Source: Promethearchaeota archaeon (lineage in GTDB: Archaea > Asgardarchaeota > Lokiarchaeia > Sigyniarchaeales > SOKP01). Taken from it: a stretch of 13,104 nucleotides of DNA. Every line of letters begins with the position of its first letter. Position 1 is the stretch's first letter. The stretch covers positions 1-13,104 of the forward strand of contig JAEOTS010000112.1 of assembly GCA_016839745.1 (NCBI GenBank). The letters run 5' to 3'. Position numbers and translations under genes: made by a program. This document shows, in pieces, positions 1 through 13,104 of the stretch. Under the pieces are notes generated by a model that made no database searches, was not told where the DNA came from, and was given only the letters and a program-made list of their open reading frames with translations.

Positions 1-1258
1 AAGAAAAATCTAGCTCTACTACTTGATCAAATACTCCAATAATTGGCTCATAAATATGTCCGCCACGATCGCTTCGAATTAAGTCCATTCCGGTGTTGAA
101 CCCTTCGGGGCTCTTTTTGAAGGGAGGAATTAGATGATCGAGCTTGTAAGCGTTATAATACTGTATCGATTGGAGCGCACCTCCGATAGTTACGCGGCTT
201 AATCGCTGAAGAGGAATTCGAGATATTCGCGCAACTTCAATAACTCCAGGAATATTCCCTTCAGAGAAATGGAGACTAGCATAAGTTGTTGTGTCTAAAT
301 GGAATCTACCAGTTAAATACACTTGAGTCCTTGAGCGCCGCCTAATTATACCATAAGACATATAATGATCTGAACCCCCAGAAAGATCAAAGATACACTT
401 TGCCAAAGGCTTTTTGTCTCGAGAGAGGTAAAGATCTTTCGTTACTCGATTTTCAGAGGCACGAGCAACTAAATACGGAAAGAGAAATTCGTCTCCATTC
501 TGAGTAAGGATTATATCAGGGTTAAGACGGTCAATTACTTTGCTTATTGATCTTATTATTTCCGCTTCACTTGCCTTGTCGATTCGTATTCTCCGTCTTT
601 TATATCCGTCAGCTCGAGGGACGTTATCATCGTCATTTTCGACTATGCTGATCTCAGCGTAGGAAATAGGATCGTTGTAATACGGTTTTACCCCTTGGTA
701 CTGGATTTTCACATCTAACCAAACTGCTCTTAATGGAGGTAAATCGTAGAAGAGTTTTTCGTTGTCGTCCTGCAAATCTATGCTAATAAGGCGTAAGGTA
801 TTTGTCTTCTTACCAATACCCTTTTCAACTTTGATTTCAAATTGACAAAAAGACATAGGGAATAGGTCGTTGACATAGAAGTACATCTGAGTTATAGGAA
901 GATCTGTATTGTATAAAGTAAATAGTCCAATCTCATTGACTTCTTTAATAGTTTTCTTAAACAAGGATGGTTTTTCGACTGTGACGCCAAGAACTCTCGA
1001 TTTTTCGTGGTCTTCCAACTTTACATACTTCTCACAGATTCGCACCTTCTTTACATTTTGATTCTGAGCAAGAATGTATTGCATTCTCTTGAAGTCGTTC
1101 CCAACATCATCTTTTGGGACAGCAAAGAACTCGGGAGAAAATTCTTGGAATATTTTTATTACTTTCCGCTCTTCTTCAGTTTTTACCCAAAGGATAACTC
1201 CTTCGCGATAGGTAGATGCGTCTAAGAGCCACCCCTTGAAAGCTGTTTGTGAGTCCAC
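1..1258 (-). CDS. polB2: Family B DNA polymerase, PolB2 (Dpo2-like) group; partial, 3' end beyond the left edge (about 419 codons visible)
   Basis: Hand translation from GTG at 1258 is open to the window edge: MDSQTAFKGWLLDA...LYNTDLPITQMYFYVNDLFPM...YDLPPLRAVWLDVK...NPDIILTQNGDEFLFPYL...GRFHLD...IEVARISRIPLQRLSRVTIG...DRGGHIYEPIIGVFDQVVELDFS. The last segment is the start of PolB motif A (DFxSLYP). The Exo motifs are degenerate. The start lies 2 nt after the stop of the PPB2-like gene. Not in the ORF track. Confidence 0.93.
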   Translation of the reverse strand, partial: MDSQTAFKGWLLDASTYREGVILWVKTEEERKVIKIFQEFSPEFFAVPKDDVGNDFKRMQYILAQNQNVKKVRICEKYVKLEDHEKSRVLGVTVEKPSLFKKTIKEVNEIGLFTLYNTDLPITQMYFYVNDLFPMSFCQFEIKVEKGIGKKTNTLRLISIDLQDDNEKLFYDLPPLRAVWLDVKIQYQGVKPYYNDPISYAEISIVENDDDNVPRADGYKRRRIRIDKASEAEIIRSISKVIDRLNPDIILTQNGDEFLFPYLVARASENRVTKDLYLSRDKKPLAKCIFDLSGGSDHYMSYGIIRRRSRTQVYLTGRFHLDTTTYASLHFSEGNIPGVIEVARISRIPLQRLSRVTIGGALQSIQYYNAYKLDHLIPPFKKSPEGFNTGMDLIRSDRGGHIYEPIIGVFDQVVELDFS

Positions 1259-1260
1259 TT

Positions 1261-1533
1261 CTATCCTTTTCCTTTTATTTTTTCCTCTAATTCTTCAATC
1301 TTCTTTTCCAAGATCTTAATTTTCTTTTCTTGCTCAATTGCAAACGACATAAAAAGAATCTCAGAGAGCATTGGACGAGCGCTTAAGCTGCCAGCATCAG
1401 CATGAATTCTAGCGAAATTCATCAGTTTGTCAAAGGTTTTTTGGTCCTCTGGCCTTAATGCTCGTTTAAAATCTTTCCAGCTTTCTATCTCGTGTTCTAA
1501 CGCTGGTCTAAAAGCAGGTACAGTCCGACCCAT
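1261..1533 (-). CDS. PolB2-associated small helical protein (arCOG07300 / PPB2-like)
   Basis: MGRTVPAFR..LE.EI..W..F.RALR.EDQ..FD.L...AR.HADA pattern typical of the small gene paired with archaeal polB2. It has a C-terminal coiled coil (EQEKKIKILEKKIEELEEKIK) and lies directly upstream of polB2. Confidence 0.85.
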   Translation of the reverse strand: MGRTVPAFRPALEHEIESWKDFKRALRPEDQKTFDKLMNFARIHADAGSLSARPMLSEILFMSFAIEQEKKIKILEKKIEELEEKIKGKG

Positions 1534-1571
1534 ATTTTACACATTCAGTATTGTTTCAAGTGTCTCGTTAG

Positions 1572-1641
1572 TACGTCTTTCAGATAATTTAAAGAAAAAT
1601 ACCTTTGAAATTTTCTAATTTTTGTTTTTCTATATAATCTT
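1572..1641 (-). promoter_or_regulatory. Putative promoter and leader of PPB2-polB2 (TATA-like element at 1631-1636)
   Basis: The minus strand reads AAGATTATATAG, then TTAGAAAATT (1618-1609), then TGAAAGA (1582-1576). The same three blocks occur in the same order upstream of the RadA-like gene. Confidence 0.4.
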
Positions 1642-1696
1642 ACCTCTTCTCCTTTACTGCCAATAGATTTTTAAATTATTTCTCACATTTTTTTTT

Positions 1697-2104
1697 ATGA
1701 ACGAAGAATTAAAAAACTGGCACGCCCCTTGTGGAATTTATTGTAAAAGATGTCCAGGAGTTCAGGCTTACAATTGTAAAGGATGTAGAACTCACGAGGG
1801 TCAGATATTGGACTTTCCAGTATGTAAAACTTTCCAATGTATTACTGAAAAAGGGCACGATTTTTGTTATGAATGTAGCGATTTCCCATGTGAGAAGCTA
1901 CAAACTATTGTAAATTTCGAGATTTTTGCACCTCATAATTCAAAAATTTACAACCTACTGATGATTCAGAAATTAGGACTCTCCAACTGGGCCAAAATTT
2001 GTGAGGAAAAATCAGATCTTTACTATAAAGGGAAAAAAATTCAGTATGGTGGAGATCCTTTAACTCTTGAAGAGAAAGATCCTAATTTCTATAAAAAGAA
2101 ATAA
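1697..2104 (+). CDS. DUF3795-family Cys-rich (metal-binding) protein
   Basis: APCGIYCKRCP...CKGCR...C..F.C...KG..FCYECSDFPCEKL pattern, with 10 Cys in the first 65 residues. Confidence 0.85.
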   Translation: MNEELKNWHAPCGIYCKRCPGVQAYNCKGCRTHEGQILDFPVCKTFQCITEKGHDFCYECSDFPCEKLQTIVNFEIFAPHNSKIYNLLMIQKLGLSNWAKICEEKSDLYYKGKKIQYGGDPLTLEEKDPNFYKKK

Positions 2105-2122
2105 TAATGCTAATTAACTAAT

Positions 2123-2257
2123 CTATTGGTTAGCTTTCCATTCCTTATAGGCTTTTGTCATATTGCCGCAATGGATTGCCTTTTTGCCTGTTTCCTTTTC
2201 AAATTGCTCTTGTAATGCCTTTTCAGCTCCAGTAGCAGGAGCTTTCTTTTTTGCCAT
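2123..2257 (-). CDS. Unannotated 44-aa basic small protein
   Basis: ATG at 2257 to TAG at 2123 gives MAKKKAPATGAEKALQEQFEKETGKKAIHCGNMTKAYKEWKANQ. It has protein-like composition, is more GC-rich than its AT-rich flanks, and fills the gap without overlaps. It is below the ORF-track size cutoff. Confidence 0.75.
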   Translation of the reverse strand: MAKKKAPATGAEKALQEQFEKETGKKAIHCGNMTKAYKEWKANQ

Positions 2258-2337
2258 AGTTTTAAAACTCTTTTTCTATTAAATATTATCTATTATTTCT
2301 AATCTTCGATTTATACTGTTTATTATTTAAATATTTC

Positions 2338-3099
2338 TTAAAGATTGATCCAACAATCTAAAGTCGTGTTTTTTGTGGAATTTGCCAGATTTCTTTTAGG
2401 TATACGCGGTTTCCACTTTAGAAGGCGACTTTCCGGCAAGTAAGGGTGTTGAACAAGAACATACTCTGTATATCGCTCGTCTTCGTTTATCATTACTAAT
2501 ACACTTCCGAAATGGGAAAGAATTTTTCCACCATTAGGCCTGAAAAGAGAATATTCGTTTAGAGGAGCGGTTAAGACAATTAGTGGTTTTGTTTTAGAGA
2601 GAATCGATTTAATCCCGTTAATCGCTCTTAGTAGATCCTCAAACGTCTGCTTTTCGTAACTCTGAAAGAGGGTAGTAATACCAGAAATTAAAACGACTTT
2701 TACCTGTTCAAGTTTAGAGAGCCTATTCTCTAAAAGCTCTACCATTTGATCCCAAGTAAACGCGCGAGCAATCAGAATATTCTCTAATACTTTTTTAGGC
2801 GAGAGATTTTGAGAAACTGCAAACTTGCTTACATTGTACGGGTTAAAACGGTTGTTTGCATCAATGAACGCAACCGTAATATCCTCTCCAAAACCGCCAT
2901 TATTAAAAGATTTTTGAGCAATAACAGCGGTGGTCAATAAAATGTTCGCACACTTCTTTTTATCGCCATAAAGGAGGTGAATTAAGTCTTTTTGAAAGCC
3001 TTCGTTTCCCAATATCTCGTCTAGAGTTGGATCTCCGCTTGGAACTGAAGGAATTCCCTTGTTTTTGTTGTAAACATTAAACCCCGATTTGAAAGGCAT
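2338..3099 (-). CDS. Inactivated RadA/Rad51-family paralogue (iRadA, ImuA-analogous)
   Basis: RadA-core signatures SGDPTLDEILG, GGFG...VAFIDANNRFNP and VLENILIARAFTWDQM are present. Walker A is replaced by YGDKKKCAN and Walker B by VVLISGI. There is no N-terminal HhH domain. It lies close to polB2. Confidence 0.85.
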   Translation of the reverse strand: MPFKSGFNVYNKNKGIPSVPSGDPTLDEILGNEGFQKDLIHLLYGDKKKCANILLTTAVIAQKSFNNGGFGEDITVAFIDANNRFNPYNVSKFAVSQNLSPKKVLENILIARAFTWDQMVELLENRLSKLEQVKVVLISGITTLFQSYEKQTFEDLLRAINGIKSILSKTKPLIVLTAPLNEYSLFRPNGGKILSHFGSVLVMINEDERYTEYVLVQHPYLPESRLLKWKPRIPKRNLANSTKNTTLDCWINL

Positions 3100-3110
3100 T
3101 ATATAAGTTA

Positions 3111-3180
3111 TAGTTCTTTCAAAATAAAACTAGGTTACTCCGACAATTTTCTAAAATCTGTATATGAGTTATATATACTT
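3111..3180 (-). promoter_or_regulatory. Putative promoter and leader of iRadA (TATA-like element at 3170-3177)
   Basis: The minus strand reads AAGTATATATAA, then TTAGAAAATT (3154-3145), then TGAAAGA (3121-3115), mirroring 1572-1641. Confidence 0.4.
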
Positions 3181-3398
3181 AATAAGATGTTTGTTCAAGC
3201 AAGAATCATAATTCTCTTTAAAAAGAAGAGTATTTTATAGAGACGGGGGGAGGATAGTAAAAGTAAAAATAAAAAAGGATGATTAGGTTCGAGTTTTTGG
3301 GGTACCGACAAAAATGAGTAGACCTAAATTGTTAAATTTTCTAAGTAGCAGATTTTTTCTTCCCCTTCTAAAAATCATAGAAAAATGATCACTATATC

Positions 3399-3480
3399 AA
3401 AACTTTATAACTAATTCTAGCAATAATTAATATTAACAAATTTTATTTAATCAAAAATGGAAAAAAAGTGAGTACGAAAA
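3399..3480 (+). promoter_or_regulatory. BRE/TATA promoter and leader of the first acyl-CoA ligase
   Basis: AAAAC-TTTATAA at 3399-3410, with the TATA starting 77 nt before the ATG. It aligns without gaps to 5620-5691. Confidence 0.6.
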
Positions 3481-5199
3481 ATGTCAAATCCATACGAAAG
3501 TAGATTTTGGCGGAAGAATTGGGACCCAGGTGTTGCTGATCTCGATCCGAAGGAATTTGAAATGACATATCCAGAGTTTATGAGAGATATGTTCGATAAA
3601 TATCCAGATGTCATGGCTCTTTCTTATCAAGGTTTAGAAATGACCTTTAACGATGTAGACAAGCGGTCCAATCAATTTGCTAACATGTTAATTGAAAATG
3701 GGTTTAAGAAAGGAGATGCTGTAGGAATAAATTTAGCCAATATTCCAGAATATATTTATTCTGTCGTGGGTACCCTAAAAGCGGGGTGTGTTGTAAGCGG
3801 AGTAAGCCCTTTAATGTCTGACGTTCAGATGCAGTATCAATTAAGTGATCTAGGTAAAGGAGGGAAACAAGTTGCCTTAGTTACGCTTGATGCAATATTT
3901 GAACATAGATTGAAAAAAATTGCTGATAAATTACCACAATTAAAGGTTGTTATATGGACGAGTGTAATAGGATCGTTTGATAAAGAATCACAGACCAAAA
4001 TTAAAGCGGTTCAAGACATTCCCACTGGAGAAGTTACTCCTCTAGAAGGAAAAGTCGTTTATAATTACCAAGACGATGTTTTGGCAAAATTTTCTGAAGA
4101 ATTACCAAAAGTAGATATTTCTCCAGGTGATATCGGTTGGATCCAGTACACGGGTGGAACAACGGGACCACCCAAGGGTGCGATGTTAAGTCACCGAAAT
4201 TGTATGTCTAATTTGTTAAGTCTTAGAGCGTGGTTACAATGGGAAGAAGGAGATGGAATGTTATTATCTGGTTTCCCTATGTTTCACATCGCGGGTTTAA
4301 CGGTTTGCGAAGGTGCTCTTTCCTTAGGTTGGGGACAAATCCTCATTGCTAATCCTAGAGATGCTCTACACATCTGTAATCAAATTAAGATTTACAGCCC
4401 GACAGTACTTGTGAATGTGCCATCCCTCTACCAAATATTGATTAATTTTAAGAAATTCAAGCGTCTAGACCATACTAAATTACGAATGTGCATTTCTGCG
4501 GCGTCTCCATTTCCAAAAGAATCTCAAGAAAAACTAGAAGCGATAGTGGGTGAAGGAAAGTTACTAGAACTTTATGGGATGACAGAATTGAGTCCTGTAG
4601 CCACTATGAACCCATCAATTGGGAAAAAACAATTGGGGAAAGTAGGTATGCCGATACAAAATGTCGATCTGAAACTTGTGGATCCCGAAACAGGTGATGT
4701 AGTTCCCTTAGGAGAACCTGGAGAAATTTGTGTGAAAGGACCTTTAGTAATGCAGGGATATTATCAAAAACCTGAAGAAACAGCGAAAGCGATTGATAAG
4801 GATGGTTATATGCATAGCGGCGATGTAGGAATAATGGACGACGATGGTTACCTCAGAATTGTCGATAGAACTAAAGATATGATTATTGTAGGAGGTTTTA
4901 AGGTTTTTAGTGCCAAAGTAGAAGATTCTCTTTCTAAACATCCTGCAATCGGAATGGTCGCATTAGTGGGCATCCCAAACCCGGATAGACCTGGATCTGA
5001 AATAGTGAAAGCATTTGTACAGATGGATCCAGATTTTGAATTTGATGGGAATAAAGAAGCATTAAAAGAGGATATAATTTCTTTTGCAAAAGAGAATTGT
5101 GCCCCTTATGAAGTCCCAAAATTAGTAGAAATTTCAGAAGAGCTTCCACTAACGGTAATTGGTAAGGTAGATAAGAAAATTCTTCGCAAGAATGATTAG
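3481..5199 (+). CDS. fadD: Long-chain-fatty-acid--CoA ligase (FadD-like AMP-binding enzyme), paralogue 1
   Basis: QYTGGTTGPPKG P-loop, PMFHIAG, YGMTE, GEICVKGP.VM.GY, HSGD.G..D.DGYLRIVDR.KDMI and terminal LPLTVIGKVDKK. Confidence 0.92.
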   Translation: MSNPYESRFWRKNWDPGVADLDPKEFEMTYPEFMRDMFDKYPDVMALSYQGLEMTFNDVDKRSNQFANMLIENGFKKGDAVGINLANIPEYIYSVVGTLKAGCVVSGVSPLMSDVQMQYQLSDLGKGGKQVALVTLDAIFEHRLKKIADKLPQLKVVIWTSVIGSFDKESQTKIKAVQDIPTGEVTPLEGKVVYNYQDDVLAKFSEELPKVDISPGDIGWIQYTGGTTGPPKGAMLSHRNCMSNLLSLRAWLQWEEGDGMLLSGFPMFHIAGLTVCEGALSLGWGQILIANPRDALHICNQIKIYSPTVLVNVPSLYQILINFKKFKRLDHTKLRMCISAASPFPKESQEKLEAIVGEGKLLELYGMTELSPVATMNPSIGKKQLGKVGMPIQNVDLKLVDPETGDVVPLGEPGEICVKGPLVMQGYYQKPEETAKAIDKDGYMHSGDVGIMDDDGYLRIVDRTKDMIIVGGFKVFSAKVEDSLSKHPAIGMVALVGIPNPDRPGSEIVKAFVQMDPDFEFDGNKEALKEDIISFAKENCAPYEVPKLVEISEELPLTVIGKVDKKILRKND

Positions 5200-5228
5200 C
5201 GATATTAAACTTCTACAAATTAAAACTT

Positions 5229-5242
5229 ATTTTTTTCTTTTT
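5229..5242 (+). terminator. Oligo-T tract, putative archaeal terminator
   Basis: T-rich run about 30 nt after the fadD paralogue 1 stop codon. Confidence 0.4.
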
Positions 5243-5354
5243 CATAATTTAATCTTGCTATCTGGATTATGATATCCAAGAAATGTTTATAACCGTTTAA
5301 GTTCAAATATAGAATTAATAATATAGTTAATATTGAAAAAATGAGGAAAAAATT

Positions 5355-5567
5355 ATGGAAGAAAAATTTAAAGAATCTCTTAAGGGAGGAATCATTGGTG
5401 CGATAATAGGCTTTATAATGAGTTTTTTGATAAACTTATTCTTATTACCATTTCCTGATTCAGCAATATCAAATGCTATGAATAATGGAATTAGTGGTCT
5501 GATAAGTGGATTCATGGGAGGTTTCATGGGAGTATTAATGTATTTTATAATGAAAAAGAAAGAATAA
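5355..5567 (+). CDS. Small two-helix membrane protein with glycine-zipper (GxxxG) repeats
   Basis: Two hydrophobic segments, GGIIGAIIGFIMSFLINLFLL and GISGLISGFMGGFMGVLMYFIM, with charged termini. It has its own TATA-like TTTATAA at 5286-5292. Confidence 0.75.
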   Translation: MEEKFKESLKGGIIGAIIGFIMSFLINLFLLPFPDSAISNAMNNGISGLISGFMGGFMGVLMYFIMKKKE

Positions 5568-5619
5568 ATTTCTTCTAGAACTCTTTTTCTATTTGCTTCT
5601 CACGAAAAATTGTAAACTT

Positions 5620-5704
5620 AAAACTTTAAATCTAAATGATTCAATACTATTTATTAACACTTTTTTTTGAAATAAAAACGAATAATAAGAGATTGATGTT
5701 AAAA
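5620..5704 (+). promoter_or_regulatory. BRE/TATA promoter and leader of the second acyl-CoA ligase
   Basis: AAAAC-TTTAAA at 5620-5630, with the TATA starting 80 nt before ATG 5705. Homologous to 3399-3470. Confidence 0.6.
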
Positions 5705-7411
5705 ATGTCGTATAAAGACAAAATATGGAAAAAATCTTGGGATGATCATGTCAAGGACTTAGACCCTAAAGAGTATGAAATGACATATCCCCAAGCTATT
5801 CGACAAACCATGGAAGAATTTCCCGATAAAATGGCGTTTGATTATCTAGGGGTACAAATTACCTACAAAGAGTTGGATGAGGCTTCAAATCAATTCGCTA
5901 ATATGTTAATTGAAAACGGTTTCAAAACGGGAGATGTAGTAGGTATTAATTTGCCAAATACGCCTGAATACTTGATGGGAGTAATTGGTACGTTAAAAGC
6001 AGGGTGTATCGTTTCAGGAGTTTCCCCTCTCCTTTCAGACGTTCAAATGCAGTATCAATTGAATGATTTAGGAACTGGAGGGAATAAAGTTGCAGTGTTG
6101 ACTTTAGATGCAATTTTTGCTGGGAGGTTGGTAAAAATCGCTTCAAAAATACCGCAGTTAAAATTAGCGATAACTACGAGCGTTGGAGGTTACCTTCCGA
6201 AAATAAAGCAGGTGTTAGGAAAATTAATTGGTAAAATCCCTAAAGGAAAAGTCACACCTTTAGAAGGAGTAACAGTATTAGACTTTCACAAAGATATTCT
6301 TACTACCTACTCTAAGGATTTACCAAAAGATAACACCAAACCAGAAGATTTAGCTTTTATTCAATATACGGGAGGAACTACTGGTCCGCCTAAGGGTGCT
6401 ATGTTAACTCACAAAAATATAGTATCTGACATAGTCATTTTTCAGAAGTGGCTTAATTGGGAAGCAGGTAAAGGGGTTGCTCTATCCGGATTTCCGTTCT
6501 TCCACATTGCAGGAACATTTACGACCTTAAATGTTATTTTTCTGGGCTGGAGTCAAATTTTAATACCCAACCCGCGTGATTCAGATCACATTATAAAAGA
6601 AATGGCAAAATACACCCCATCCGTTTTGGCTAACGTACCTTCGTTATATCAAATTTTAATGAAAAATCCAAAATTTAAAGACTTGGATCATTCAAAATTA
6701 GATTTCTGTGTTTCTGCTGCTGCACCCTTCCCGAAGGAATCTCAAAAAGAATTTGAGGCGATAATTGGTAAGGGTAAACTAATAGAAGGATATGGAATGA
6801 CAGAAACTTCTCCACTTACCGCATGTAATCCATCTATAGGTGTTAAAAAACTTGGAAGTATAGGACTCCCTCTGACTAACGAAGAATTTAAGCTCGTTGA
6901 TCCTAATACAGGAAAAGAAGTACCATTAGGAGAACCTGGTGAAATATGTGTTAAGGGTCCGCAAGTGATGAGAGGATACTACAATAAACCAGAGGAGACT
7001 AAAAAAGCAATTGATAAGGATGGATTTATGCACACTGGCGATGTTGGAGTAATGGACGAAGACGGCTACGTAAAAATCGTAGATAGGACAAAAGATATGA
7101 TAATCGTTGGTGGTTTTAAAGTGTTTTCGGCAAAATTAGAAGACACCTTAACTAATCATCCTGCTATCGGAACGGTTGCTATTATAGGTGTAGATAATCC
7201 TGAGAGACCCGGTTCAGAGATCGTTAAAGCATTTATACAATTAGATCCGGACTATAGTTATGACGGAAACGAAGAAACTTTAAAAGCTGATATCACTGCG
7301 TTTGCGAAAGAAAATTGCTCACCTTATGAAGTTCCCAAGATGATAGAAATTACTGAAGAACTTCCATTGACTACTGTCGGTAAGGTCGATAAGAAAGTTT
7401 TAAGAAAATAA
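5705..7411 (+). CDS. fadD: Long-chain-fatty-acid--CoA ligase (FadD-like), paralogue 2; start revised from 5636 to 5705
   Basis: Same motifs as paralogue 1 (QYTGGTTGPPKG, EGYGMTE, HTGD, LPLTTVGKVDKK). MSYKDKIWKKSWD aligns with MSNPYESRFWRKNWD of paralogue 1, and ATG 5636 lies inside the conserved promoter. Confidence 0.92.
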   Translation: MSYKDKIWKKSWDDHVKDLDPKEYEMTYPQAIRQTMEEFPDKMAFDYLGVQITYKELDEASNQFANMLIENGFKTGDVVGINLPNTPEYLMGVIGTLKAGCIVSGVSPLLSDVQMQYQLNDLGTGGNKVAVLTLDAIFAGRLVKIASKIPQLKLAITTSVGGYLPKIKQVLGKLIGKIPKGKVTPLEGVTVLDFHKDILTTYSKDLPKDNTKPEDLAFIQYTGGTTGPPKGAMLTHKNIVSDIVIFQKWLNWEAGKGVALSGFPFFHIAGTFTTLNVIFLGWSQILIPNPRDSDHIIKEMAKYTPSVLANVPSLYQILMKNPKFKDLDHSKLDFCVSAAAPFPKESQKEFEAIIGKGKLIEGYGMTETSPLTACNPSIGVKKLGSIGLPLTNEEFKLVDPNTGKEVPLGEPGEICVKGPQVMRGYYNKPEETKKAIDKDGFMHTGDVGVMDEDGYVKIVDRTKDMIIVGGFKVFSAKLEDTLTNHPAIGTVAIIGVDNPERPGSEIVKAFIQLDPDYSYDGNEETLKADITAFAKENCSPYEVPKMIEITEELPLTTVGKVDKKVLRK

Positions 7412-7520
7412 AATTCCAACAAATATTTGATGTTTTCTATAATCCAAATAATTATTTTTTTTAATTTTTATTTCTCGTAGATTTGACTACTGTTAAAATC
7501 AATATAGTAATTAGAAATTA

Positions 7521-8297
7521 TTAAGCTTGTTTTATCTCGTTTTTAACAATGTCAACAATAAGAGGGAAGACATCGCCTATCTTATCGTGGATTACAACTT
7601 CGGCTTTATAGTCCATATCAGTATCTTGAATATTGATTATTCCTAATTTGGCACCCCTTGATAGTGCTTTTCTAGGGTAAAATGCTACAGGGTATACTAG
7701 TAAAGAGGATCCAAGTACAATTAATAAATCACAGGATTCAATCATTTTATCTGCTTGGTTTAAAGTTTCTGATCGCAATGGTTCTCCAAAAAAAATTGCG
7801 TTTGGTTTCAATAAGCCATTACAGACTTCACATGAGGGACTATTTTTACCACTCATTACTTGATCTATCATGATGGTAATAGGATATACTTTATCACACC
7901 TCATACAAATTGCTTCATAAGCAGTTCCATGCAACTCTACCACATTTTTGCTATGTGCCTTTTGATGTAGTCCATCAATATTTTGAGTAAGAATACCGGT
8001 TAATTTGCCAAGTTTTTGAAGTTTTGTCAATGATTTATGCCCATTATTAGGTTTAGCTTTGAATATATTCATACCCATTTCTAACATAAAATCCAAATTC
8101 TTTTTTGTATCAGACACATAGGAATGAATGCTGGCAAACTCATTTGGATTCACTTTTTCCCATAAACCAGTGCCTGGACTTCTGAAGTCCGCAATTCCAC
8201 TCTCTGTACCCATCCCTGCTCCTGTTAAGGCTACGATGTTTTTAGCATCAAGAATAAGTTGAGCAAATTCTTGTATTTTTATATTCAAGTCGGTCAT
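7521..8297 (-). CDS. cobB: NAD-dependent protein deacylase, Sir2/CobB family
   Basis: TGAGMGTESGIADFRS, TQNIDGLHQKA, ELHG (catalytic His), Zn pairs CMRC and CEVC, LKPN..FFGE and GSSLLVYP. Confidence 0.93.
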   Translation of the reverse strand: MTDLNIKIQEFAQLILDAKNIVALTGAGMGTESGIADFRSPGTGLWEKVNPNEFASIHSYVSDTKKNLDFMLEMGMNIFKAKPNNGHKSLTKLQKLGKLTGILTQNIDGLHQKAHSKNVVELHGTAYEAICMRCDKVYPITIMIDQVMSGKNSPSCEVCNGLLKPNAIFFGEPLRSETLNQADKMIESCDLLIVLGSSLLVYPVAFYPRKALSRGAKLGIINIQDTDMDYKAEVVIHDKIGDVFPLIVDIVKNEIKQA

Positions 8298-8477
8298 ATT
8301 ACAAAATTCTCGATTTATTTTGTGAACTTAATGATGATGATAGAAAAAATAATGATATTAATTAACTCTTTTGAAATTGTTGAATTTTTTTCTTAAATTG
8401 GAACAAATAATAAATATGATTGTTTTTATTTATTGAATATAATATATTATTATAACTATCTTAATTATTGAAACGCT

Positions 8478-9038
8478 ATGTCTTCAGTTTATACAAAGTA
8501 CCAAAAATCCTACATCTATAAAATTTGCGTTGTCGGAAACGGTGGTGTGGGCAAGACTTCCATGGTCCTCAGATACTGTGAAAATTCTTTTAAAGAAAGT
8601 TACTTAATGACAATAGGATCAAACTTTAGTACAAAGACAGTTGAACTAGCTGATCACCCACAACTACAAGTAAAACTACAATTATGGGACCTAGCGGGAC
8701 AGAAGCATTTCTCGTTTGTTAGACCACCATTCTATCGAGGAGCAACTGGTATCATCTATGTGTATGACCTTACTCGCCGTTCCTCCTTTGCGGATATGCT
8801 TGAGTGGCGAGACGAAGTTGAAAAAGTAATTGGTCAAAAACCAAGCCTATTGATAGGTAATAAACTAGATCTCGCTCGCGTAGGTCAAAGAGAGGTAGCA
8901 GAACAGGATGGAGAAGCCCTAAAAGGAGAAATGCATGCAATGAAATATTTTGAAACCAGTGCTAAAGAAGGCGATTCAGTAGAAGATGTGTTTAAGGTGT
9001 TAACATTAGAAATCCTTAAGACTTCTGGTAAAATTTAA
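8478..9038 (+). CDS. Rab-like small GTPase (Ras superfamily, eukaryotic signature protein)
   Basis: G1 GNGGVGKT, G2 TIG, G3 WDLAGQ, G4 NKLD and G5 ETSAK. RabF-like segments IGSNF, KLQLW, FYRGA and YVYDLT are present. Confidence 0.93.
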   Translation: MSSVYTKYQKSYIYKICVVGNGGVGKTSMVLRYCENSFKESYLMTIGSNFSTKTVELADHPQLQVKLQLWDLAGQKHFSFVRPPFYRGATGIIYVYDLTRRSSFADMLEWRDEVEKVIGQKPSLLIGNKLDLARVGQREVAEQDGEALKGEMHAMKYFETSAKEGDSVEDVFKVLTLEILKTSGKI

Positions 9039-9118
9039 TTTTTAACATATAAACATTAAATTCAAATTTGTTATTTAATTTTAAAATAACAAATATCAAA
9101 TAATTTTAAGTTATAATT

Positions 9119-9853
9119 ATGTTTGGTGGCGGACAAGTTAAGTACGACCGGGCATTAACTGTTTTTAGTCCCGAAGGAAGATTATTCCAAGTAGAATACG
9201 CTTTAGAAGCTGTAAGGCGAGGTACTTTAGCAGTAGCAGTAAAAACAAAAGATTGCGTTTGTTTAGCAGCTGAAATTAAAATTCCTTCAAATTTAATTGA
9301 CGCTGACTCAATTGACAAGTTATTTCAAGTTGATGAACATATTGGAGTTGCTATCTCAGGATTACACGCTGATTCAAGAACTTTAATTAATTACGCTCGC
9401 GTTCAAGCACAATCCTTTCGTTTAACGTACGATGAACCTGTTAGATTAAACATGTTGGTAAAATCCTTGGCCGATATAAAACAGCAATATACCCAGTTCG
9501 GAGGAATTAGACCATTCGGGTGTGCTCTGTTCTTTATTGCCATTGATCCTGCAGGAACTCAAATTTATACTACATCTCCAAGCGGAATTTATAGAGCTTT
9601 TAAAGCATATGCGTTAGGGAGTGGAGAAGCAACGGCAAGAGATTACTTGAAAGAAAATTACAAAGAAGGTTTGACTTTCGATGAGACTGTCAAATTGACC
9701 TTAAATGCTCTTAAGGAATCTATTAATGAAGAACCCACTAAAGAAAATACTCGTTTTGCTTATATCAAATCCGAAGATAAAAAATTTCACATGTCCTCGA
9801 AGGACGAAGTAGAGAAATTCTTGAACCTAATAAAGGAAGAACCTACAACTTAA
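9119..9853 (+). CDS. psmA: 20S proteasome alpha subunit
   Basis: Alpha-subunit signature YDRALTVFSPEGRLFQVEYALEAVRRG, plus SIDKLFQVDEHIG..ISGL.AD and QQYTQFGGIRPFG. Confidence 0.96.
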   Translation: MFGGGQVKYDRALTVFSPEGRLFQVEYALEAVRRGTLAVAVKTKDCVCLAAEIKIPSNLIDADSIDKLFQVDEHIGVAISGLHADSRTLINYARVQAQSFRLTYDEPVRLNMLVKSLADIKQQYTQFGGIRPFGCALFFIAIDPAGTQIYTTSPSGIYRAFKAYALGSGEATARDYLKENYKEGLTFDETVKLTLNALKESINEEPTKENTRFAYIKSEDKKFHMSSKDEVEKFLNLIKEEPTT

Positions 9854-9975
9854 ATTAAAACTTTTTATTAGATGATTCTATTTCGAAATTTTTGATTTCT
9901 CCTTCATAAAACTGGCATTACTTTATATAAAATCTTTTTTTATAAATCGATATTTCTTAAATTTATAATAAATAT

Positions 9976-9987
9976 AAAAAAAAAAAA
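9976..9987 (-). terminator. T12 tract immediately after the UPF0182 stop, putative terminator
   Basis: 12 A on the plus strand directly abutting the stop codon at 9988. Confidence 0.5.
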
Positions 9988-12900
9988 TTAGTTATTATAT
10001 ACAGATATTAGGTTTTCTGGAGAAGTGTAGAAAATCGCACCATTTACAATTAAGGTCCATTGATAGAAGATGATTATGCCTCCTATTGTTGTATTCACGA
10101 ATCCATTTAATACTAATCCTTCACCAAAATATAGAGTAGTATCGACTACTGTGAAGTTTGTAACCGTGTTAGGAACATCTATATAAGTAGAATTTTCTGG
10201 ATACAAATCTGGTGGTAAAATTAAGTTGTAACTTAAATTAAGATTATTAGTGAGCTCAGTAGTGGCGTAAATCGATAGGTTGACTTTAACTTGCAAACCA
10301 ACCGTATCGGAAAAATTAGTATCTAAATTCTGTAGGTTTATTATAAAGTTTGCTGGATCACTCGGGTAAGTCATTGAGGATTCCATGTCGAAATTATACG
10401 ATAAAGATATATTCGAAGGAGTTACAGCACCCGTCAAATTCAAATTAGTGTAAGCCTCTTGCGCACTTTCGCCATAACCTACTTCTCTGTTAAAAGCTTC
10501 TACGAATCCTGCTAGTTTTAATTGTTGAAGACTACCTGCTGTACTGTAGGTTGGAATATAGTAATAAATTGACCCCCCAATTGGATATAATAGCGTATTT
10601 CCATTTCGAGCACCCGAAATTAATATAATTTCTTGAGTTGCTTCGGATCTATAAGTTTCTCTTGCAGTTGTTGGACCTATTAGACTTTCACCAGAATCTC
10701 TAGTGTAATAGAAAATCGCTTCACCAAAATGCTCGCCATGTCTAACAACGTACATTCCTGCTAGTAAAGTTGCTGTTAATCCCTTGTATTCTACTAAATC
10801 TAAACCAACGTATTCAATTCCGTCCCCTAAATCAGATTCTATGTAGAATAAATCGCCGTCTTCTGGTCTTTCGTGGAAATCATCAGCTCGCCTCCAAGAA
10901 ACTGAATTTTGCACGTGATATATGTAATTTGCTTCGAGTTGTAATTCAAACAAATCTTCAGGATATCGTAATTGTGCTTTCAACCAATCCCATTCGGGAC
11001 CACTCTGCCAATCATATTTGTCTAAATAAATTTTCCAGAGATCATAAGTTGGATCGTTAGAACTATCTAAAGTTGGATTTTTATAAAAAGTCATCTCTCC
11101 ACTTAACACATCCACGAGGCTAACGCCTAAGAATCTCAATATTGGAAATTGAGCATAAGCGCCAACATTAATGTAAGTGTAAACCGAAACAGCGTAATAC
11201 ATTTTACCTTGACCAATATTAAATACCAAATAAGGATCGTTATCAATTCTTAATTGAGGAAGAAGTATATTCTCCGTTCTAGATCTTACATTTCTATGGA
11301 TAAGGTATTGATGTTCAGTTTGAAATGCGTATGCAAACAATCCAATATTCAAGGTCTTCCAAAAACCTTCTAAACCATAAAGAGTTCCATCTGGATCTCC
11401 CTCATATTGAAATTCGTTATTAGGAATTTGATTTGACCATTCTGTATTAAGTAGTATGTCAGAATCATATGCACCTAAAGAACCTTCTTCATAATAGCCC
11501 AGCGTCGTTTCAAGATATCTTTCACTTTCGCTTTCTCCAAAAAAGATCGGATAATTTTCAGATATATTAAATTTTTCTGTCACATTTACTAGATCACCTG
11601 TGAAAGTGTCCATTGCTAAAAATCCTTCTACGTGATCATATAGTTCTGTATTAGTTTGAACAGCATCTCCAGCTATTTCTGAAAATCTAACTGTTTTAGG
11701 AGCAACCCAGTATTCTTTATTGTTTATATATATTATATCCGAATCGGCTAAACCTTCAAAAGTAGAACCTATTGAAGCGGCTAAATATTGAACTGCGAAG
11801 TTCTGATCAAATTGTCTAACTTGAGAGACCATTTGAGCATCTGTAGTTGTGCGCAATGAGTCCGTAAAGTTTACAATTGGTCGTTCTTCAAACATGTCTA
11901 AACCAGCACATGCCCTAGTCCATTCAATTTCTCTTTTATATTTTTTGTTCCATTGTTGCTCTGTCCACACTGCGGTATTATTTAGGTTCAAAAGTGGTCC
12001 AATACTTATTATTAATGGTGATACTACAAAAACTACCACAATTACAGTAATATAAATCAACTTTTTTTGCCTACTCCTTGAAAAAATATAATTTTTCACA
12101 TCTTTCTTGTATTGAGCTTTTCCATACACATAAATGAGAATTCCTAATGATGTAAAAGAGAAAAATCCGAAGATTAGTGCTAAAATTTGAATGACATTTA
12201 TTCCATCTAAAGAAAGGGTTGGAATAAAGACAAAGAAAAATCCACAAAGTAAACCAATAATTACTAAAACATTTCCTATCACCATATAATCGTTTCGTTT
12301 TAAATAGATATTCTTTACTATATTAAGGATTAATCGCAAAATTATAACACCAATTACAAAACTTACAATTGGGACAATTAGATTTGAATAAATATAAATA
12401 GTAACGAAATCTGTGTTATTTGCGTTGAAAATTACATTGAACGCATCAAAGATTAGATTTGGGGATAATTGAATTTCTCCGTTTTCAATTAAATAGAGTG
12501 TCCAAGCAAAGCCGCCGTTATTTACGTTAAGGAGCAATCCTGCGAAATAGAATATTATAAAACCAAAAGTCCACCAAAATATCAATGATTTCAAATAGGA
12601 TGGTTTACCAAATCTTAATTTTGTTCCAATAATAGTTAACAAATTCCTCTCAGGTGGGATACTCATTAGGAAACTTCCAATAAAGGCTCCAATCAACGCA
12701 GTTTTGTTAAATAAGAAATTAGTGGACCAAAAATTTAAGAAGTAAAAATCAAAGTAGTCTAACCCACCGGCCTTATTAGCATACAGTTGAGATTGGAGAT
12801 TTATATTGCCGAACCACGCTGGCCACAACCAAAAAATCGCTAAAGCTATGACGATAGCAACAATTATAACAACGATTAAGAGATATTTTTTTTTAAAACC

Positions 12901-13014
12901 TCCTTTTTTTAAAAGGCTATATCTGAATCGAGGTTCATTCTCTAGATTTATTCTTTGACAATCTTCACAATAATAGTTAAATTTTTTATGTTTTTCACAA
13001 GATTTTTTTGCCAT
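9988..13014 (-). CDS. UPF0182 (COG1615)-family multi-pass membrane protein with a large extracytoplasmic domain
   Basis: About 7 hydrophobic helices in the N-terminal third. Family-like motifs follow: LYDHVEGF, PIFFGE, HRNVRSRTENILLPQLRIDNDPYLV, VDVLSGEMTFY, AQLRYPEDLFELQ, GPTTARE and GNTLLYPIGGSIYYYIP. Confidence 0.82.
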   Translation of the reverse strand: MAKKSCEKHKKFNYYCEDCQRINLENEPRFRYSLLKKGGFKKKYLLIVVIIVAIVIALAIFWLWPAWFGNINLQSQLYANKAGGLDYFDFYFLNFWSTNFLFNKTALIGAFIGSFLMSIPPERNLLTIIGTKLRFGKPSYLKSLIFWWTFGFIIFYFAGLLLNVNNGGFAWTLYLIENGEIQLSPNLIFDAFNVIFNANNTDFVTIYIYSNLIVPIVSFVIGVIILRLILNIVKNIYLKRNDYMVIGNVLVIIGLLCGFFFVFIPTLSLDGINVIQILALIFGFFSFTSLGILIYVYGKAQYKKDVKNYIFSRSRQKKLIYITVIVVVFVVSPLIISIGPLLNLNNTAVWTEQQWNKKYKREIEWTRACAGLDMFEERPIVNFTDSLRTTTDAQMVSQVRQFDQNFAVQYLAASIGSTFEGLADSDIIYINNKEYWVAPKTVRFSEIAGDAVQTNTELYDHVEGFLAMDTFTGDLVNVTEKFNISENYPIFFGESESERYLETTLGYYEEGSLGAYDSDILLNTEWSNQIPNNEFQYEGDPDGTLYGLEGFWKTLNIGLFAYAFQTEHQYLIHRNVRSRTENILLPQLRIDNDPYLVFNIGQGKMYYAVSVYTYINVGAYAQFPILRFLGVSLVDVLSGEMTFYKNPTLDSSNDPTYDLWKIYLDKYDWQSGPEWDWLKAQLRYPEDLFELQLEANYIYHVQNSVSWRRADDFHERPEDGDLFYIESDLGDGIEYVGLDLVEYKGLTATLLAGMYVVRHGEHFGEAIFYYTRDSGESLIGPTTARETYRSEATQEIILISGARNGNTLLYPIGGSIYYYIPTYSTAGSLQQLKLAGFVEAFNREVGYGESAQEAYTNLNLTGAVTPSNISLSYNFDMESSMTYPSDPANFIINLQNLDTNFSDTVGLQVKVNLSIYATTELTNNLNLSYNLILPPDLYPENSTYIDVPNTVTNFTVVDTTLYFGEGLVLNGFVNTTIGGIIIFYQWTLIVNGAIFYTSPENLISVYNN

Positions 13015-13104
13015 ATAATAAAATCATCAGTTTTCTTTTTTTACTTAAGATTAAAAAGATAAATTTTTTTTTAGATAATATAATGCTTTAATATAAAAGA
13101 TAAT

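Follow-up and report, generated by a model that had tools for sequence, protein, structure and literature searches.

The left end of contig C82 raises the question of whether an inactivated RadA, a small helical protein and a family B DNA polymerase encoded next to each other in an Asgard archaeon form an error-prone polymerase system, and of what role should be attributed to the two further genes that lie among them. The window (the whole stretch of DNA that was analysed, 13,104 nucleotides (nt); contig C82, bases 1-13104) comes from a metagenome-assembled genome of a Promethearchaeota archaeon (3.5 Mb in 192 contigs, 89% complete), and the nearest relatives of its proteins are labelled Lokiarchaeota or Promethearchaeota. 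The locus is probably a Lokiarchaeal PolB2 mutasome that has been opened into two putatively co-regulated units, with the genes for a DUF3795 protein and for a protein of 44 amino acids (aa), orf44, as neighbours. The minus strand of positions 1-3099 encodes, in order, iRadA, orf44, PPB2 and the N-terminal part of PolB2, and the features of this region are as follows.

2-1258, minus strand: PolB2, N-terminal 419 codons, comprising the N-terminal and dead exonuclease domains up to motif A; cut by the contig start.
1261-1533, minus strand: PPB2 (arCOG07300-type PolB2 partner), 90 aa, with the start MGRTVPAFR.
1585-1618, minus strand: putative PPB2-PolB2 promoter, with the box TTAGAAAATTTCAAAGGTA at 1618-1600 followed by the TATA-like CTTTAAATTA at 1594-1585.
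1697-2104, plus strand: DUF3795 protein, cysteine-rich, 135 aa (Pfam PF12675, E=1e-11).
2123-2257, minus strand: orf44, 44 aa, a lysine-rich N-terminal tail plus a module of ~30 aa (..ETGKxAIxxGxxTKxYxxWK).
2338-3099, minus strand: iRadA, inactivated RadA/Rad51 paralogue, 253 aa (Pfam Rad51, E=1.5e-14).
2347-2370, minus strand: C-terminal tail of iRadA, NTTLDCWI, resembling a PCNA-interacting protein (PIP) box.
3121-3154, minus strand: putative iRadA promoter, with the box TTAGAAAATTGTCGGAGTAAC at 3154-3134 directly upstream of the TATA-like GTTTTATTTT at 3130-3121.

The Rad51/RadA, DNA_pol_B_exo1 and DUF3795 assignments are backed by both Pfam and NCBIfam. A sequence-only reading of this region had described a dead RadA, a small helical protein and an exonuclease-degenerate PolB as co-oriented, and the open reading frames (ORFs) are indeed as described, all on the minus strand. 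It had also placed a DUF3795 gene and a 44-aa ORF between iRadA and PPB2; the placement is right, but DUF3795 lies on the plus strand, opposite the other four genes.

The polymerase gene starts with GTG at 1258, 2 nt past the PPB2 stop, and its 419-aa product matches Pfam DNA_pol_B_exo1 (E=6e-14) before the gene breaks at motif A ('..ELDFS'), which is base 1 of contig C82. Aligned with the canonical PolB of the same genome, the window protein has Exo I changed from DIE to DVK, Exo II from FD to FL (NGDEFL) and the Exo III segment deleted, so that the degeneracy of the exonuclease motifs noted earlier is borne out; the motif A aspartate is retained. Motif C, which had to be read in the orthologues since the window gene ends at motif A, is HGIVDS in all of them (94-37% identical), and the canonical PolBs of the genome (C57 and C108) carry the motifs DIE, NGDNFD, YxxxD and YGDTDS. 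These two canonical genes (C57:1189-3948 and C108:21453-23898, with DTD and intact exonuclease motifs) are very similar to each other, one of them being cut by a contig end, and may represent either true paralogues or strain/contaminant duplicates (estimated contamination 5.8%).

With only 419 codons at hand and the 3' half absent from the assembly, the gene might be taken for a decaying remnant of a polymerase truly truncated or split in the organism. We give this next to no chance: the break coincides with base 1 of a contig, the completeness of the assembly is 89%, a public contig derived from the same type of sample extends 14 nt beyond the window start, and the orthologues are all intact and strongly conserved, with uninterrupted frames of 800-830 aa in 30 related genomes. 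An intein or a genuine split at motif A was rejected on the same two grounds, the uninterrupted frames of the relatives and the position of the break at the contig start. The description of a 'split' system given by the sequence-only reading is therefore apt for the locus, whereas the polymerase gene itself is only truncated by the assembly.

To place the polymerase, a profile of ten full-length orthologues was compared with 1.84 billion representatives, with matches to 1219 clusters at E<=1e-30. Of the best 150, the 128 representatives with lengths of 650-900 aa have without exception xxD as motif C and never DTD; shorter and longer matches were omitted from the representative alignment and from the tree, many of the longer ones having an intein-bearing appearance. 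The tree (FastTree, LG+gamma; outgroup, the genome's canonical PolB) groups the genus clade of the window with the representative P0164 in a single 13-tip Lokiarchaeal clade with support 1.0, and a branch of 2.4 substitutions per site parts the whole PolB2 family from the canonical PolBs. P0164 is MBD3351474.1 (868 aa, with 'HGIVDSMWL' at 570 and 'KSGLDKYF' at 860), and we equate it with a published PolB2 because its length and the positions of both motifs match a row of Supplementary data 1 of Timinskas 2025 (PMC11791011), where it is listed as part of a Lokiarchaeota type 1a iRadA-PPB2-PolB2 operon. With this protein the window fragment shares 41% identity (E=1e-111), and the two polymerases show the same NCBIfam ranking, in contrast to the C57 PolB, which scores above the 'DNA polymerase I' cut-off. 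The family has other named members in Helarchaeota, in Bathyarchaeia/Nitrososphaerota and in one Leptospiraceae bacterium, a range that fits the published PolB2 distribution. A second homologue search, aimed at named distant PolB2 proteins, returned close Asgard proteins only. The closest solved structures are those of Thermococcales PolB, with the match limited to the polymerase domain, and no PolB2 structure was among the solved-structure matches of the polymerase. Overall, the assignment to PolB2 made in the sequence-only reading agrees with this placement.

As a side observation, six matches of 1250-1340 aa (P0177, P0178, P0189, P0190, P0200 and P0225) have the profile match interrupted at approximately position 515, near motif B, which suggests inteins within PolB2 genes of other lineages.

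The RadA homologue lacks the N-terminal helix-hairpin-helix domain present in the RadA paralogues of the genome, and both of its nucleotide-binding motifs depart from theirs (Walker A, GDKKK-CAN vs GEYRTGKT; Walker B, VLISG vs IVVDS), in keeping with its earlier description as a dead RadA. Its C-terminus, NTTLDCWINL, conforms to a pattern N-x-T/S-L-D-x-W/Y-F/L conserved across the genus and two other families. The PolB2 orthologues in turn end in Q-x-x-L-x-x-Y/F-I/M (e.g. at L029:1302-1340), the closest of them (94% identical) in the PIP-like QKDLSCYI. PCNA-binding motifs have been reported at iRadA C-termini, their presence in both partners being uncommon (Timinskas 2025, PMC11791011); in this lineage both iRadA and (in the orthologues) PolB2 bear PIP-like tails, a second point of modest value next to the promoter boxes discussed below.

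The small protein begins with MGRTVPAFR, that is, with the MGRT motif, including R3, followed by R9, and residues G2, R3, T4 and R9 are invariant in 18 PPB2 orthologues. The MGRT arm with Arg3 and Arg9 has been described as the key element of complex formation (Timinskas 2025, PMC11791011). In an AlphaFold2 (AF2) model (predicted local distance difference test, pLDDT, 75) PPB2 consists of three helices preceded by a free N-terminal arm; the final helix has 37 residues and, in the model, would be long enough for the proposed coiled coil. A Foldseek search of this model against the PDB gave no match at E<=0.001, and PPB2 scores in no Pfam or NCBIfam model, none existing for the family.

The three genes are not neighbours by accident. 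Of 20 related loci from the genus and three other families, 18 have the arrangement iRadA-PPB2-PolB, and so do 15 of 20 further loci drawn from 10 further genera of the family, so the linkage in relatives on which the sequence-only reading depended is far beyond chance. In the other families the three genes are contiguous, as they are in one genus of the same family (g14). At the DNA level, all loci compared share the end of iRadA and a homologous block of ~95 nt upstream of PPB2, and differ in the DNA between them. Neither DUF3795 nor orf44 is present in four close relatives, one of which is the closest of all (94% PolB identity), and three of the four have a slot of ~44 nt; one genome has DUF3795 alone, three have orf44 and DUF3795, and other relatives have an amidohydrolase_2 gene, a gene for a 245-aa membrane protein or a ParE toxin pair in the same place. 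In the last case (L037:5700-6172) the ParE-toxin gene is accompanied by a small upstream partner. The slot is hypervariable, a local hot spot of gene turnover. Unitigs from four marine-sediment DNA runs (one study) were short and had loose ends at ~1633/1636 and at 2287, the edges of the variable slot; these would fit co-occurring slot variants, without being conclusive.

How do the two genes now in the slot relate to the polymerase system? DUF3795 points away from PPB2, with ~160 bp of shared intergenic DNA between the two in the window and in several genera, and converges with orf44 and iRadA. Orthologues, always on the opposite strand, are known from at least 8 genera of the family: they occupy the slot in g1, g12, g16, g17, g18, g20 and g21, and in g15 one is located close to iRadA. 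Genera g13, g14 and g22 and the other families lack it. We had considered DUF3795 a recent insertion, a view dropped after the wider sample of 20 loci from 10 further genera: it is an old resident, acquired later than the contiguous arrangement and since lost on several occasions. No mechanistic tie to the polymerase is apparent.

A lineage-specific accessory or regulatory role of DUF3795 and/or orf44 in the mutasome is nevertheless a reading that has to be weighed; in such a case DUF3795 might serve as an Fe-S/Zn redox sensor, and orf44 as a small tethering protein that acts with iRadA. It would explain why DUF3795 stays in the slot across genera though all else there turns over, with 10 invariant cysteines among orthologues of 63-92% identity, and why it is set divergently to PPB2. 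On the other hand, DUF3795 is encoded on the opposite strand and is missing from the four close relatives as well as from the genera and families named above; in further-broken loci (L074-L078) it stays convergent at the iRadA 3' end and does not follow the PPB2 promoter; it has seven paralogues in the genome; and it is not among the reported polB2-enriched neighbours. An AF2 model of DUF3795 was unusable (pLDDT 38). One of the paralogues (C190:12160-16393) stands in a same-strand cluster with a methyltransferase-like gene, a UvrA-like ABC ATPase (847 aa) and then a 203-aa ORF, with a PadR-like regulator nearby; a link to repair drawn from its position two genes from the UvrA-like ATPase was judged too thin and set aside.

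The evidence on orf44 is similarly divided. It is a real gene under purifying selection, with 11 synonymous vs 3 non-synonymous codon differences to one orthologue and 15 vs 11 to another; it has its own TTTAAATA box, and in four g1 genomes and one g16 genome it lies directly downstream of iRadA on the same strand. These features would suit an accessory protein, but most members of the genus do without it, and its ~30-aa module (..ETGKxAxWxGKxTKxF/YxxWK), usually next to a lysine-rich linker, occurs in 56 of the 61 genomes of the order at 1-14 copies each. It is found at the C-terminus of RNA polymerase subunit A' and of a membrane protein of ~260 aa, at the N-terminus of an ABC ATPase, and in free mini-ORFs (~45 aa each) that lie apart from iRadA. 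Within the genome under study the sites besides window 2123-2257 are C134 ~9601-9696, C46 30741-30845, C27 13014-13094 and two ORFs on C163. The module matches no Pfam family, and a search of the ESM Atlas with orf44 gave best matches of 0.75-0.76, below the useful level. The orf44 module is general-purpose and probably not a part of the mutasome. The sequence-only reading had left it undecided whether the embedded genes were accessory subunits or later insertions; with the slot hypervariable and DUF3795 on the opposite strand, the evidence favours insertions or neighbours, and we consider an accessory role for either protein rather improbable.

Upstream of iRadA, the block TTTTAGAAAATTGTCGGAGTAAC (3154-3134) is almost invariant in 14 members of the genus while its flanks diverge, and most of the 13 genera sampled retain its core YAGAAAAYTGTCGG in front of iRadA. 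The block upstream of PPB2 is conserved in 15 genus members whatever the slot contains, related boxes precede PPB2 in other genera, and g18 and g21 have almost the same box at PPB2 as at iRadA. In g14, where the genes are contiguous and PPB2 has no separate promoter, the box is present at iRadA only. There is good comparative evidence that both halves of the opened operon have a cis element in common. An operon routinely opened in one Lokiarchaeal family, each half with a box, is a natural experiment pointing to such an element, and the shared promoter box is the most useful lead from the locus.

Whether the box answers to DNA damage can be approached by comparison with Sulfolobales. There, as the sequence-only reading had noted, Dpo2 is damage-inducible; in S. 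islandicus the induction is Orc1-2-dependent (PMC6061795). The corresponding damage-response element (DDRE; ANTTTC within AATAGTTTCRGWDTACTCWS, bound by Orc1-2) resembles the Lokiarchaeal box in its position just upstream of the TATA element of the PolB2 system. Of the 20 positions of the S. islandicus consensus, the iRadA box agrees with 14, including TC-RGWDTA, and the PPB2 box contains a perfect AATTTC. By this analogy the two halves may be under damage control. A bolder version of the same idea, in which the YAGAAAAYTGTCGG box at both halves would be the Asgard counterpart of the Sulfolobus element, with DUF3795 and/or orf44 as regulatory or tethering partners in addition, we regard as unlikely; if true, the archaeal relatives of eukaryotes would for the first time offer a DNA-damage regulon and an accessory factor that are open to experiment. 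In any event, the box, orf44 and DUF3795 are concrete, testable candidates for the control of error-prone synthesis in Asgard archaea.

A second conserved block, TTTTTACTT..ACT.TCCTC.C.C.GTCTC, lies at window 3239-3270 (minus strand), ~140-170 nt upstream of the iRadA start, between iRadA and a divergent acyl-CoA synthetase gene, and is kept in 14 of the 14 genus members aligned.

The locus can now be compared with the systems already described. The PolB2-PPB2-iRadA system was described in 2014 (PMC4104785) and modelled in 2025 with Lokiarchaeota examples included (PMC11791011), and Heimdallarchaeota examples have been published as well, so that the 'candidate Asgard mutasome' of the sequence-only reading is not new; the locus is a further example of a published system, and nothing new in kind. 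The published operon (PMC4104785; PMC11791011) encodes the same three protein families, identically ordered, and shares with the present one the dead exonuclease, the motif C xxD, the MGRT arm, an iRadA devoid of the N-terminal domain and Walker motifs, and PIP-like tails; a Lokiarchaeota operon of the same clade is part of the 2025 dataset (PMC11791011). The differences are that interspersed forms are rare in that dataset (PMC11791011), whereas here, in one Lokiarchaeal family, most genera have iRadA and PPB2 separated as a rule, and that PIP-like motifs, uncommon in both partners at once, occur here on iRadA and (in orthologues) on PolB2. Compared to the Lokiarchaeal polymerase of ~800 aa, Sulfolobus Dpo2 has a less full N-terminal half. 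The three genes thus carry the sequence-level hallmarks of the published PolB2 system, which supports the earlier suggestion of a damage-tolerance or mutagenesis module in an Asgard archaeon.

Bacterial parallels are more remote. The E. coli Pol V mutasome (UmuD'2C-RecA-ATP) is likewise multi-subunit, error-prone and damage-induced, combines a RecA-family protein with a small oligomeric partner and docks on the clamp; it differs in having a Y-family polymerase and an active RecA from the filament, and with no sequence relationship beyond the RecA fold the likeness is one of analogy only. The ImuA-ImuB-DnaE2 mutagenesis cassette, too, has three genes, one of them for a degenerate RecA-fold protein, but it employs a C-family polymerase and a Y-family-like adaptor, and no ImuB or DnaE2 homologue occurs here: the polymerase belongs to family B, and the small protein shows no resemblance to the Y family (Pfam/NCBIfam). 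Contrary to the sequence-only reading, PMC4104785 and PMC11791011 draw the comparison with Pol V (UmuD'2C-RecA) and LexA-linked operons, not with ImuA-ImuB-DnaE2.

By homology with Sulfolobus Dpo2, the complex would extend or bypass damaged or mismatched primer ends, thereby contributing to error-prone damage tolerance. A PolB2 without proofreading, and with IVD for DTD in motif C, would act together with a PPB2 trimer, built as a coiled-coil pillar, and one ATPase-dead iRadA, which would bind a RadA-oligomerisation-like motif of PolB2, the MGRT arm of PPB2 being inserted between PolB2 and iRadA, and the PIP-like tails of iRadA (and of the orthologous PolB2) could dock the assembly on PCNA. 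As to its genetic organization, an ancestral contiguous iRadA-PPB2-PolB2 operon would have been opened between iRadA and PPB2 in this family; iRadA and PPB2-PolB2 would now be separate transcription units, PPB2 and PolB2 (2-nt spacing) being probably translationally coupled, and the related box just upstream of each TATA element may keep the halves co-regulated, possibly by DNA damage. DUF3795 and orf44 would fill the opened slot as neighbours and not as core subunits.

A different function, in replication initiation or origin regulation, has been proposed as an alternative to translesion synthesis for this complex by Makarova 2014 (PMC4104785), who noted a link to Orc1/Cdc6 (arORC2) genes, and the lack of the first motif C aspartate in most PolB2 proteins could be read in its favour. 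This is a very unlikely explanation of the present locus. According to published reports (PMC8764526, PMC7390963), S. islandicus Dpo2 is damage-induced and acts as a mismatch and lesion extender needed for targeted mutagenesis, and the window contains no orc1/cdc6 gene. Furthermore, a Y-family polymerase is also encoded in the genome, which is compatible with PolB2 as an extender, since the two could cooperate.

Several points weigh against the assignment of the locus to an opened, damage-responsive PolB2 mutasome. The C-terminal half of PolB2 is not in the 89%-complete assembly, where the only matches are the two canonical PolBs at 26-29% identity, and the catalytic half (motifs B and C and the C-terminal PIP-like motif) is thus presumed from the orthologues. 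The tree had the genome's canonical PolB as its sole outgroup, with no named PolB1 or PolB3. Damage-inducible lesion or mismatch extension is known only for Sulfolobus Dpo2 and would be ascribed to the Lokiarchaeal enzyme by homology. With respect to damage control, the iRadA hexamer is ATTGTC, one position off the Sulfolobus ANTTTC; the genome shows no clear excess of boxes or DDRE-like strings over dinucleotide-model simulations (one pattern, 11 observed vs 1-8 simulated), in other words no regulon enrichment, and no coherent set of repair genes downstream of box matches.

The complex prediction is the last of these points. A run with PolB2 residues 1-419, three copies of PPB2 and iRadA as the only scored partner, of the kind put forward with the sequence-only reading, gave a score of 0.48 against 0.00 for the best control, a weak pass. 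In the benchmark of this score 58 of 80 solved complexes and 2 of 110 mismatched pairs attain the mark, but the range at 0.60 or under contained only 7 of the 80 solved complexes along with both mismatches. Contacts agree between runs to at least 53%, the partner pLDDT is at least 76, and no interface is reported. We count this modelled association as mild support because the prior from synteny and the published models is strong.

The remainder of the window (3481-13014) encodes two tandem AMP-binding acyl-CoA synthetases, a Sir2-family deacetylase, a 1008-aa UPF0182-like membrane protein and a Ras/Roc-type small GTPase, whose gene adjoins that of a proteasome alpha subunit.

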